A model generated the notes under the pieces. The model had not been told where the DNA came from. It saw only the letters and a program-made list of their open reading frames with translations, and ran no database searches. Position numbers and translations under genes: made by a program. 64,000 nt of DNA from Eledone cirrhosa (Eukaryota), in assembly GCA_964016885.1 (NCBI GenBank), contig OZ024747.1:682001-746000 (forward strand), given 5' to 3'. Positions 49,996 through 62,137 of the stretch are shown piece by piece. Position 1 is the stretch's first letter; every line of letters starts with the position of its first letter.

Positions 49996-50133
49996 TACGT
50001 GAATTATTGATGGACGTAAGAATGAAAACTCAAAACCTAAGTAGTTTAAATATTCATTTATTATAACTAAGCCTTGTTACTCTGGAGTTTCGCCTGCGTA
50101 CTTACCAGACAGACTGGTGATATATATATATAT

Positions 50134-50305
50134 AATGTAAAAGGTAGACAGAAATAACAACACAATCGGTACAGTATATGGAAGGAATATATTAGGTTAA
50201 CACTTGAAATAGCAGGAAGAGGGTGTTAACGTTTCGCACGCTAGTCTTTCATCAGAAGAAAGAATGAGAAATAAGATAAATTGAGGGGACGGGCCGGTTG
50301 GAGAT
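50134..50305 (-). mobile_element. Hammerhead cassette (degenerate copy of 59127-59298), flanked by (TA)n on both sides
   Basis: Minus strand CTGATGAAAGACTAGCGTGCGAAACGTTAAC, with stem II broken by substitutions. The rest aligns by eye with the 59.1-59.3 kb copy. Confidence 0.8.
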
Positions 50306-50430
50306 ATATATATATATAGGAGATGAATAAATTGGGTATAATACCAGTTTCTTACCAAATACGAAGCTCGATATATTAACCCCTTAGGAAAGGGTACAGA
50401 GCTTAATCTTTTTTAAATGATATATATATA

Positions 50431-50657
50431 CAGTGGCGGTGGAACTGGGAGGCGGGGGGGCATGTCCCCCTCCAATAATACTTTCTCCCCAAACTACCAA
50501 AACATATCTATTTGGATATGTGCTACAATTTATGTACATGTTATGTTTATCGCATATCGAAATTATCTCACCATTTTAGAGTCAACGAGCTAAACTAATC
50601 ACTACGACTAAATTGTGCCCCCCCCCCCCTCCATTCAGAAATGCCTCCACCGCCTTG
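50431..50657. mobile_element. hAT-like MITE (decayed)
   Basis: Imperfect TIR CAGTGGCGGTGGA / TCCACCGCCTTG with subterminal GGGGCA/TGCCCC motifs. No clean TSD. Confidence 0.55.
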
Positions 50658-51515
50658 TATACGGCACCTTATCAAACAGTATCTGATATTGGGATATATA
50701 TAGTGGTTCTGTTCTAAGACAGATTTGATGGACTTTACATTCTATACCGGCTTATTTTTTCAGACATCCATCTTTTAAAAAGTCGATGGAAGATTTGATT
50801 ATTTCTAGTGTTTAACTCTAGGTCAACCCTGATCAAGTAGGCTTAGATTAAAAACATTCCAACTATTTACATCCTTTCTTCTATTCAGATAGTGTATCTT
50901 GGATTATATTATCTAATGTGTAGGTAGATTGTATGCTACATCTAGCTGGGCGAGGGACCGTGTAGAGGTTTAATATTTCTTGGCACATGTGTGTCTTCAT
51001 ACATGTAGCGCCTGATGGTGTGATGTAGGTCTTGTAGTGTAACGTCTGTGTATACCTGCCTCTTTTCTCTCTCATATTTACAAATCTAAATATTTACCTC
51101 AACTAACGATATTTCTTTATGTACACAAGTTGGCAATCAATTCTACTTTCATTTAAGGATTAGTTCGCCTCATGGTCCCAGCGGACAGAATGAGGAGAAC
51201 ATTGTCCCGGATGGCGAGGGAGACGTGATGGAACAGAGACTTCACCTTGCGGGGCTCGCACCTGCGGGTAGCCAACACTGTCCTATAGGGATTTGGTCCC
51301 AGGAGGGGTCAATAATGCTGGAAGTCTCAACATTCTTGATAGTCTCGGATAAAACGAATTGACGTTACTTCCACTGGAATTAAGACAATAGTCATAAATG
51401 CATGCTGAACATTTTCAGTTTAATGTGCTCATACTAAAATCTATTATTCCACCTGAATTCCCCGTAAATATTGACTTTTCAGCATTTATACTTTACTATT
51501 AAACTAGAGAGATTA

Positions 51516-51691
51516 TTGACAAGAAATCTCGAAATAAGAAATGAAAATATCTCGTCCGATTCACCGGATTTATTTTGTTTGCTCTATTCACAGACACGAG
51601 TCGACGAGGGAACATTTATCTTAACCTTACCTAATGAATCCTCTGAATTAGGCGAGATATTTTCATTTCTGATTTCGGGATCTGTTGTCAA
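51516..51691. mobile_element. Small MITE-like imperfect inverted repeat (~57-bp arms, ~60-bp spacer)
   Basis: TTGACAAGAAATCTCGAAATAAGAAATGAAAATATCTCG... pairs with ...CGAGATATTTTCATTTCTGATTTCGGGATCTGTTGTCAA. Confidence 0.6.
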
Positions 51692-51803
51692 GGATTCACT
51701 TTATTACGTAGTAAATATATGTTTCTGTTGTTTAGCCCTAGGTCAGCCTTGACAGAGAAGTCCCATGATTAAAGTTTCAAGTCATGACCATCCCCGTCTT
51801 CTT

Positions 51804-51962
51804 CAGGGCCGTCTTAACAGCATTATAGACCCCCGGGCAAAGCAGAGCACTGGGGCCCCTACCTACACAACCACTCACAGGAATAAAAATACAAATGGGC
51901 CCCCTATCCTCGCGGGACTTCCGGGCAACTGCCCAGCGTGCCCATGCGTTAAGACGGCTCTG
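51804..51962. mobile_element. 159-bp hAT-superfamily MITE with perfect 8-bp TSD
   Basis: TIR CAGGGCCGTCTTAAC / GTTAAGACGGCTCTG (1 mismatch). TSD GTCTTCTT at 51796-51803 and 51963-51970. Nested in the ~200-bp dispersed repeat. Confidence 0.92.
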
Positions 51963-59304: not shown

Positions 59305-59772
59305 CACGCACGCACGCACGCACGCACGCACGCACGCACGCACGCACGCACGCACGCACGCACGCACGCACGCACGCACGCACGCACGCACGCACGCACG
59401 CACGCACGCACGCACGCACGCACGCACGCACGCACGCACGCACGCACGCACGCACGCACGCACGCACGCACGCACGCACGCACGCACGCACGCACGCACG
59501 CACGCACGCACGCACGCACGCACGCACGCACGCACGCACGCACGCACGCACGCACGCACGCACGCACGCACGCACGCACGCACGCACGCACGCACGCACG
59601 CACGCACGCACGCACGCACGCACGCACGCACGCACGCACGCACGCACGCACGCACGCACGCACGCACGCACGCACGCACGCACGCACGCACGCACGCACG
59701 CACGCACGCACGCACGCACGCACGCACGCACGCACGCACGCACGCACGCACGCACGCACGCACGCACGCACG
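59305..59772. repeat. Perfect (CACG)117 tetranucleotide tract, flanked by (CA)n and (GA)n
   Basis: 468 bp with no visible interruption. Confidence 0.98.
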
Positions 59773-60135
59773 CGAGAGAGAGAGAGAGAACATTAAGTGA
59801 GCAAAGTTGGTTTCGTATATCAAAGAGATACAATCTTGATGTCTTAAACCCATTTAACATTTTATTATAGATCTATAGATCAAGGCACTATTTGAATGAC
59901 GTGGCGGTGGTGGTGGCATTTTCAATTCTCAATGCACGTTGTCATATATGTATTTAGTGTCCGTGTGGTTTAATGCTTTGGAATGTTTAGCTCACAGTCA
60001 TGTATTGTTATAATACATATTTCTATCACTGTTTCTCTGTGTGCCCAGTTTTCGTGGTTCAACTGGTATTCCAGCCGTCACCAGACTTTCTAGAACATCG
60101 TATTCAGAAGTAAAGTTATCCAGTACTATACCAAT

Positions 60136-60271
60136 CCATTTGTTAAAACGATAGGGTGATCTTTGGTGGAGAATGGCTATTTCTAGCTGATTAAGCGATT
60201 ACACCATTTGTTAAAACGATAGGGTGATCTTTGGTGGAGAATGGCTATTTCTAGCTGATTAAGCGATTACA
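60136..60271. repeat. ~68-bp exact tandem duplication within a dispersed-repeat copy
   Basis: CCATTTGTTAAAACGATAGGGTG...GATTAAGCGATTACA occurs twice. Confidence 0.92.
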
Positions 60272-60758
60272 TAGAGGCTGTTCCTTCCGGTGTCACACAG
60301 TGACATGTTGCTGGAGGTGCAGCTGCCCCTAAAAAATTATCAGAAAGTTCTTAAATTTTCAAAAAATATTGTATACTTTGCTCGTTTATTTTAATTACAC
60401 AAAACATAATAAATTAAGTACAATACAATAATGAATAAAGATGGCATGGTAATGATTGGTGTGTATAAACATTTTATCACAAAATTACGAACGTCTGCAC
60501 CTCCCAAAATGGAGCACTACACTTATGGTGACATATATATATTTGAAAAATGCTGCTTAGTAGGGTCTCTCCTGATTCACTAACCAACATTTTTGGACTG
60601 ACTTTACGTATAGGGTAATTATGGCAGTATGTAATTCTCATAACATAATAACCTGCACATTCTGCATACTTCACTCATGTCATACATACAGAGTATGTGT
60701 GTATATATATATATATATATATATTTATATATATATATATATATATATATATATATAT

Positions 60759-60859
60759 ATAGGAACCAGTAAGACCCCGACAGCTGAGCTCAAGCCGTTT
60801 CTCAGAATTAGCCGTCGAAACGGCTTGAGCTCAGCTGTCGGGGTCTTACTGGTTCCTAT
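60759..60859. repeat. Perfect inverted repeat (43-bp arms, 15-nt spacer) carrying a hammerhead 3' half
   Basis: 60759-60801 is the reverse complement of 60817-60859. The arm begins GAA-ACGGC-TTGAGCTCA-GCTGT-C (stem III plus GUC). Confidence 0.95.
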
Positions 60860-61224
60860 TATCCACTCTACTACCTCAAGTATTGAGTACTTTGGTGCGT
60901 TATGGTCCACCTGGTTCCTTACCACATTTCCTTCGTTATATATATATATATATATATATATAGTAGAATAATCGAGTATCGGAAAATCAGCTCACGAGTT
61001 TACGATAAACAAATCCGACATGAGTGGCAGAGGGCTCAATAATTCAGATAAATCAGAGCTATAACTATCGTTAAAATACCAACACACAAAGATTATGTCT
61101 AAAATCACCCATGCGGCCGAAAAATTACGACCAGGAAGTTTCGGGTCACTCAGATAAAATATCAAAAAATCAATAAATCATATGAATGTAAAAAGCTTAT
61201 ATATACAGAGTATATGTATATATT

Positions 61225-61929
61225 TCATCATCATCATCGTTTAACGTCCCTGTTCCACGCTTGCATGGGTTTGGACGGGAGTTTTCCCACTTGAGGCAAG
61301 AGTGGTTGTCTTGCTCGCATAGGACTGTCTGGCAGGTTTTCTACAGCTGGATGCCCTTCCTAACACCAACCACATTTACAGTGTGGGACTGGGAGGTTTT
61401 TACCGTGTTGCCTACACGGCCACATTACAGCGTGGACTGTGTTTTTTTGTCGTGACACCTACACGATCTCATTTGTTTTGGCCTGGATGTTGTGGCACCA
61501 ACATAACTTTGCATTGAAGGGGGCGGTGTGGATGGGGTGGGGGTGGTGGGACGGGGGTGTATTTTGTTAGAGATGCCTACTGACTGTAGTAGGTTTTACT
61601 TTGTATTTAGGTAAGGCGGGTCTTTTCTGTTACTGAGTACCGCCAAAGGTCTCGGTCCAGTGACATTGTCTTGGAGAGGTGTAAGTGTGTGAGGTCGGAA
61701 TTTATCAGCTCGTCCCAGGTTTTCCTGGGTCTGCCTACTCCGTGGCTACCATCTATCTTTATTGCCCTGCACTTTGTTATACAGCTGTCGTATTTCATGC
61801 GCATCACGTGACCATACCAACGTAGCCTTCTCTCGAGTAAACAACATCTGATCCCTCTTATTTCTAATTTTTTCCTTAGTTCGTTTATGCTTTGCCGTTC
61901 ACGTATATCACTATTACACATCCAGCGGA
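61225..61929 (-). mobile_element. Strongly 5'-truncated RTE LINE, same subfamily as 7304-10730
   Basis: [20 protein letters not shown]...EKTRLT*, 3'UTR and (CAT)n tail. Confidence 0.96.
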
Positions 61930-62137
61930 TGAGAAAAACCACAGACCCTCCATCTCAACTCTACTTTTGAAAATCAGAAGAACTGCGAAACCGGTAAAGG
62001 AACCAAATAAATATATATATATTTTTTTTAAATAAGACTCCAGTTGCATTTTCGATTTCATCTCTTTTTCTTTATACTTTCACTCGTGTAGGACACCTCG
62101 GTTATTTTTCAATTTGTAAAAAAAACCTCACTTTCTA
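61930..62137 (+). mobile_element. Candidate hammerhead cassette with U3-A8 core variant (motif 61964-61999) ending at (TA)n
   Basis: CTT, TTGAAAA, TCAG-AAGAA-CTGC, GAA-ACCGGT-A, AAG. Confidence 0.5.

Follow-up and report, generated by a model that had tools for sequence, protein, structure and literature searches.

Hammerhead-bearing islands among (TA)n tracts of Eledone cirrhosa as probable remnants of Penelope-like elements

What are the short islands of DNA, many with hammerhead ribozyme motifs, that lie between the microsatellites of one octopus locus? The question is raised by a 64,000-nucleotide stretch of the Eledone cirrhosa genome (contig OZ024747.1 of assembly GCA_964016885.1, positions 682,001 to 746,000; hereafter the window, numbered from its first letter), an AT-rich region that a tandem-repeat scan finds to be dominated by (TA)n arrays and in which a first reading of the letters, the original prediction, had described a cluster of microsatellite-anchored hammerhead cassettes at 50070 to 62137. 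Our analysis indicates that the islands are probably dead, 5'-truncated 3' ends, present as solo and fold-back pseudo-long terminal repeats (pLTRs), of at least five families of endonuclease-bearing (EN+) Penelope-like elements (PLEs), copied into (TA)n DNA, it would appear, by target-primed reverse transcription. Rather than the parts of a system, as had been proposed, they are independent dead insertions.

Every motif listed in the original prediction is present where it was placed, and the expectation that the motifs would outnumber those of shuffled sequence held. A strict descriptor of the type-I hammerhead has one match in the window, at 59175-59210 on the plus strand, and none in any of 100 block-wise dinucleotide shuffles of the 39,690 unmasked bases. 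When one lesion is allowed, with either a C3-G8 or a U3-A8 core (in the conventional hammerhead numbering), there are six matches at five loci: 22538-22608 and 54171-54231 on the minus strand, a mirror pair at 54941-54977 (minus) and 55049-55085 (plus), and 59175-59210 and 61964-61999 on the plus strand. The same shuffles gave a mean of 0.12 and a maximum of 1, a contrast somewhat flattered by a descriptor that was written after the window had been viewed.

Self-BLAST and alignments resolve the islands into five families, A to E, with eight insertions (A1, A2, B, B', C, D, D2 and E), in line with the claim of at least five distinct flanking bodies; by self-BLAST, three of the families (A, B and D) recur at separate loci within the 64 kb. 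In family A, the copy A1 (59069..59298, plus strand) is a PLE-type 3' end, truncated on its 5' side, with (TA)n at one flank and (CA)n/(CACG)n at the other. Its complete minimal hammerhead (59175-59210) has a stem I of 4 bp, CUGAUGA followed by an extra A, a stem II of 4 bp and GAAA-CG-UU, and fits the consensus drawn for minimal PLE hammerheads in Fig. S3 of PMC4209133 (U-rich, CUGANGAH, G..C, GAAAN-palindrome-NUH). The predicted cut site lies at 59206, 92 nt from the 3' end. The second copy, A2 (50136..50303, minus strand), has (TA)n on both sides and matches A1 by self-BLAST at 92% over 165 nt; its motif at 50224-50259, previously read as decayed, is indeed that of a damaged family member, with three uncompensated substitutions in stems I and II. 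The last base is common to both copies (n = 2) and lies 92 nt beyond the predicted cut site; their 5' starts differ, A2 being the shorter.

Family B is represented by a fold-back that occupies both strands of 54139..54374, the right-hand limit being the end of homology to a second insertion, B'. The left arm (minus) contains a near-complete hammerhead at 54171-54231, with a stem I of 7 bp, a stem II of 10 bp and a stem III that adds 2 bp to the core A-U pair, and the right arm (plus) begins at the core (54243-54244). In both arms two adenines oppose each other at the base of the 10-bp stem II, and the family lacks the G10.1-C11.1 pair that is usual in published PLE hammerheads. B' (53866..54014, plus strand, between two (TA)n tracts) is a diverged relative, 76% over 99 nt to 54278-54374 by self-BLAST, that terminates near the long end of B and in which the ribozyme is represented by its 3' half alone (GAAA at 53891). 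Across the family (54171-54297, 53866-53912), the 3' strand of stem II is similar enough to the 5' strand of stem I that it could pair with the 3' strand of stem I, as it does in the predicted fold of B'; this may mean either that an alternative fold is conserved or that a deletion took place between direct repeats.

Family D also forms a fold-back (54820..55238, both strands), centred on the palindrome TGATCA (55010-55015) and bounded at both ends by (TA)n. Each arm (54941-54977, minus; 55049-55085, plus) carries a UUGAAAA core, with GCAA replacing GAAA. A second insertion, D2 (61930..62137, plus strand), matches D by self-BLAST at 77% over 66 nt (E 5e-4); its motif (61964-61999) has the U3-A8 core, an intact GAAA and a broken first pair in stem II. 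The cores at 55049 and 61964 had been called decayed. Instead, UUGAAAA is the covariant U3-A8 core reported for PLE-linked Cercyon motifs of Schistosoma mansoni (in PMC4209133), and each copy adds one further lesion to this published variant. Comparison of D with D2 by eye (n = 2) reveals two compensatory pairs, of which stems I and II hold one each. The 3' end of D2 abuts (TA)n, and its 5' end abuts a truncated RTE-type long interspersed nuclear element (LINE), the two 5' ends meeting head to head at 61929/61930 with no evident target duplication; this junction may record a nested insertion or a template switch.

The third fold-back, family E (60762..60936, both strands), has (TA)n at both ends and a 3' hammerhead half on each arm (60817-60839, plus; mirror GAAA at 60801, minus), with a 5-bp stem III and a GUC site. 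Family C is a single insertion on the minus strand (22508..22727), outside the cluster as originally drawn and between two TA arrays. In its hammerhead (22538-22608), stem I measures 8 bp, stem II is long and contains one mismatch, stem III is the palindrome UGCGCA, and the site is AUA.

How far can lone 3' halves be trusted? Those with a stem III of at least 2 bp number 14 in 49300-62137, mirror copies being counted twice, against 4.0 +/- 1.9 in 200 shuffles. They are enriched as a set, and with about four expected by chance single cases need other support. Among the four halves originally claimed, that at 53891-53903 (plus) is upheld because it is homologous to family B, and that at 60817-60839 (plus) because it combines a 5-bp stem III with a fold-back; the single-copy halves at 50078-50091 and 61128-61142, indistinguishable from chance, cannot be called alone. 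The first of these (F, uncertain; 50078..50119, minus strand) reads GAAA-CUC-CA-GAG-UA without CUGANGA and has a TA tract on its 5' side only, and its body does not end at a microsatellite. The second (G, uncertain; 61128..61157, minus strand) is a degenerate motif without stem II that may be a chance occurrence. Both occur once in the window.

For F and G, then, a chance origin is plausible. That the whole set consists of chance motifs in AT-rich DNA, the mirrored copies being assembly artefacts or generic hairpins, is highly improbable. Such an origin would agree with the four or so halves expected in the region, with the late tuning of the one-lesion descriptor and with the predicted lowest-energy monomer folds of A1 and B, neither of which is the hammerhead (-7.7 versus -5.9 kcal/mol in A1; -15.7 versus -12.4 kcal/mol in B). 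It would also agree with the Rfam models, which failed to recover the motifs in the way that the original prediction had envisaged: no hammerhead is found among all 45 matches in 49900-62200 (E<=10) or among the best 150 of 630 matches in the whole window, the matches being hairpin-driven, miRNA-like and all under their gathering scores. Chance does not account for six descriptor matches where no shuffle exceeded one, or for three families that recur at separate loci. As for artefacts, the arms of the B and D fold-backs differ by substitutions and an 8-nt duplication, which would not be expected in a mis-assembled copy and thus argues against assembly error.

The arrangement of the fold-backs links the islands to PLEs. 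B, D and E are head-to-head inverted pairs. The short arm of each ends in TAT-type letters that pass directly into a (TA)n tract, and the right arm is the longer one, by 33-39 nt in D, at least 45 nt past the left-arm end in B and 77 nt beyond the left arm in E. An adjacent inverted, truncated copy and a one-sided tail of 30-40 bp are described as PLE hallmarks in PMC8557442, palindromes at inverted PLE junctions are described in PMC3846280, and the in vitro work in PMC11167929 matches the PLE tail to two internal start sites of reverse transcriptase (RT). The islands thus combine the ribozyme core, head-to-head inversion, a one-sided tail and a fixed 3' end with variable 5' truncation by which EN+ PLEs are recognised. 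The three fold-backs with one-sided extension, together with the common 3' end of family A, support the claim that several Penelope-like families left their 3' ends here. Measured by hand from the core, the 5' starts lie at about -127 (C), -110 (A1), -48 (A2), -39 (D), -37 (D2), -19 (B, left arm) and -1 (B, right arm), and B' and E start inside stem II; we therefore rejected a discrete 5' start at the ribozyme edge as a rule.

From the motifs, homologies, fold-back and tail geometry and flanks present in the DNA, we infer parent elements, a copying mechanism and any cleavage along the following lines. Judging from the published PLE mechanism, the GIY-YIG endonuclease of the element would nick AT-rich DNA. 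Copying by the RT would begin within the RNA, at either of two fixed points that lie downstream of the ribozyme by 20-160 nt, proceed back through the uncut ribozyme and end early; two fixed internal starts would yield both the common 3' ends and a tail on one side only. The inverted arm could come from a second cDNA or from self-priming at a palindrome. In the parent element, cleavage of multimeric RNA by the ribozyme would call for a dimer or for the help of protein. Monomers of published minimal motifs do not cleave, and protein is required by the anole PLE ribozyme described in PMC11167929. Most copies in the window carry lesions and are predicted to be inactive.

These lesions, in catalytic or stem positions, bear on a further explanation, in which the host has selected the ribozymes to act in cis on a long transcript of the region. 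The local density of seven insertions in 12 kb could be read in this way. Since both strands are used, most copies are damaged and the nearest recognised exon, the last coding exon of a YLPM1 orthologue, is 35 kb away, we consider host selection the least probable of the explanations weighed here.

Several observations weigh against a PLE origin. The extensions of B and E exceed the classic PLE tail of 30-40 nt, and the differences between A1 and A2 amount to decay, not covariation. No coding sequence was found in the window that would tie the islands to a PLE, a domain scan and tblastn bearing out the statement that no PLE RT or GIY-YIG open reading frame (ORF) is visible. None of the 112 ORFs of at least 70 aa that were scanned, a set from which ORFs with masking above 25% and ORFs across one short stretch were excluded, contains GIY-YIG. 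The RT matches of window ORFs fall in LINEs, four of which also show an apurinic/apyrimidinic endonuclease. With tblastn, 10 PLE-type proteins gave nothing convincing in the window (best E 1.6), and the best match of 150 such proteins (E 0.009) lies inside LINE ORFs. A 17-residue frame upstream of A1, a weak candidate for a PLE endonuclease remnant that was noticed by eye and scored with profile columns picked afterwards, ranks first of 31,472 scored windows with a broad profile of the endonuclease C-terminus, by 0.1 bit only; its score is 6.9, where the 5th percentile of the training set stands at 25.3, and it falls outside the top 10 with a narrower profile. The absence of an ORF is, on the other side, what is expected of short truncated copies.

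What an A-type ribozyme marks elsewhere was gauged in a positive control that counts for the PLE reading, a scan of metagenome contigs with the A-type core that yielded at least 119 loci. Stem I reached at least 3 pairs in 72 of 120 motif matches. PLE-protein homology lay on the ribozyme strand in 25 of the 119 loci and on the opposite strand in 3, a comparison that is partly circular and to that extent counts with the objections above, the queries having been drawn from the same loci and 13 of the 25 being one family. Among 83 ORFs scanned, 6 loci had GIY-YIG ORFs upstream and 1 had an RT ORF downstream. Two multi-copy families have two discrete 3' ends and tailed fold-backs. The ribozyme is all that the control loci have in common with the window, which adds to the same objections; they show what the A-type ribozyme marks and are not relatives of the islands. 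Viral contigs gave no match to the A-type or D-type pattern. Long PLE-type ORFs that start 53-76 nt after the start of the A-type core were seen in three metagenome loci (L024, 1100-3469, minus strand; L046; L055).

Anchoring to microsatellites, a central feature of the original prediction, is real and is not specific. All eight insertions abut (TA)n at one or both ends. Within 49300-62137, 45% of unmasked bases lie within 200 nt of a TA tract, and 10 of 12 LINE junctions, chosen by hand, abut a TA-type tract or lie within about 20 nt of one. With both RTE and CR1 LINEs abutting such tracts, (TA)n adjacency was ruled out as a PLE marker.

Might the islands never have belonged to coding elements? 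Under a second reading, they would be dispersed monomers of pLTR-derived families that lack an ORF, are either mini-PLEs or retrozyme-like, multiply by way of short RNAs or circles and rely on PLE protein supplied in trans. A coding remnant has been securely found on none of the eight insertions, and D and D2 start at nearly equal points, 39 and 37 nt upstream of the core; moreover, retrozyme families have solo monomers and derive from pLTRs, according to bioRxiv 10.64898/2026.07.22.740005. Metazoan retrozymes as presented in PMC7229834 are tandem 150-450 bp units with canonical hammerheads. The tandem-repeat scan and self-BLAST place no ribozyme of the window in a tandem unit, a result that leaves the retrozyme-like alternative of the original prediction unsupported, and the motifs are minimal or variant rather than of that canonical type. 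The 5' ends are spread between about -127 and positions within stem II, and a fold-back with a tail is the signature of PLE insertion. Together these points make non-autonomous replication unlikely.

A bolder proposal builds on the ends of the fold-backs. In octopus genomes, several ORF-less mini-Penelope families may be mobilised in trans, with variant ribozymes (the U3-A8 core; the A-A base of stem II) and with a short fold-back arm primed by the annealing of template TAT or TATA to nicked (TA)n, as is suggested by the TAT-type letters, continuous with the tract, in which all three short arms end. The short ends of the control families also lie at AT-rich letters, so that TAT at the short ends in the window may come from the elements' own sequence and not from a match to the target. 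We regard this proposal as speculative and, by a shade, even less likely than non-autonomous replication as such. If true, TAT/TATA priming would explain the PLE tail, and the islands would offer a dense natural series for testing the role of the PLE hammerhead.

The islands lie among other repeats, and one gene is recognisable. The last coding exon of the YLPM1 orthologue occupies 14639-14785 (plus strand), its 48-aa exon (14639-14782) being 98% identical to an Octopus bimaculoides protein and matching YLPM1 in other animals; reading by eye alone places a probable preceding exon near 11681-11828. LINEs that we take, from their structure, to be of RTE type lie at 4059-7110 (plus), 7322-10744 (minus), 43971-46450 (plus), 47267-49044 (minus) and 61238-61929 (minus) and form about three subfamilies; their RT ORF has a PHD-finger match directly after the RT core, their tails are (GAT)n and several sit inside (TA)n arrays at both ends. 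Copies that we likewise take to be of CR1 type lie at 39951-43536 and 62485-64000 (both minus), with a 46-bp 3' stub at 22212-22257 (plus), and these too are flanked by TA arrays. A 17-kb (TA)n/TATG array fills 22728-39950 and includes a gap of 200 N (32051-32250). Two small elements with terminal inverted repeats, at 11960-12129 and 51516-51691, are likely miniature inverted-repeat transposable elements; neither gave a hammerhead match in the descriptor scan, and the first has a partial relative at 20433-20515. Between TA tracts at 50318-50419 stands an unexplained 100-bp island; its minus strand has a 3' half at chance level (GAAA at 50351), and a short frame on its plus strand ranked second in one endonuclease profile scan. 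Of at least 23 sequencing runs that matched, three from a single sample contain 71-75% of the words and may be those from which the assembly was made; the matching runs listed include none of RNA, which says nothing about expression.

Most likely, then, the islands are an ordinary kind of repeat with known PLE anatomy, and they add cephalopods to the animals whose PLEs carry minimal hammerheads. For O. vulgaris, the repeat annotation of 2026 (PMC13282606) reports 31 recently active Penelope-like families, a point in favour of the PLE reading, and the words hammerhead and ribozyme are absent from its main text. In literature searches we found no earlier report of PLE hammerheads in an octopus or other cephalopod, although the supplements of PMC13282606 and PMC8557442, and Repbase, may list them. 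Pieces of 100-400 bp such as these may form part of the unclassified repeat fraction of octopus genomes, where the ribozyme would provide a means to classify them. Eight insertions per roughly 40 kb of unmasked DNA suggest, by extrapolation from one window, that there are many genome-wide, and many copies would permit the counting of tail lengths and of microhomologies at the ends, which bear on the open question of how PLEs integrate.

Among known systems, the metazoan non-LTR retrozymes (PMC7229834; bioRxiv 10.64898/2026.07.22.740005) resemble the islands, as far as these accounts describe them, in being non-coding, 100-400 bp long and low in GC, with a type-I hammerhead; the islands differ in having no tandem units, minimal rather than canonical ribozymes, and fold-back and tail geometry. 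At the level of the motif, family D shares with the Cercyon hammerhead of S. mansoni, as given in PMC4209133, a UUGAAAA core, a short stem I and a G-C base of stem II, and it departs from that hammerhead in its CCGG palindrome, in lacking the extra base after A9 and in the further lesion of each copy. Compared with the 5'-truncated EN+ PLE insertions (Penelope/Poseidon, Neptune, Nematis and Hydra clades) with minimal hammerheads in the pLTR that are described in PMC4209133, PMC8557442, PMC3846280 and PMC11167929, the islands have no attached ORF by which to assign a clade, and the extensions of B and E are longer than 30-40 nt. With these same insertions they share a minimal type-I hammerhead in which stem III is palindromic and A9 is followed by an extra base, motifs that occur solo and on opposite strands, a head-to-head inverted copy, a one-sided tail, a fixed 3' end with a variable 5' end, and AT-rich or (TA)n targets.

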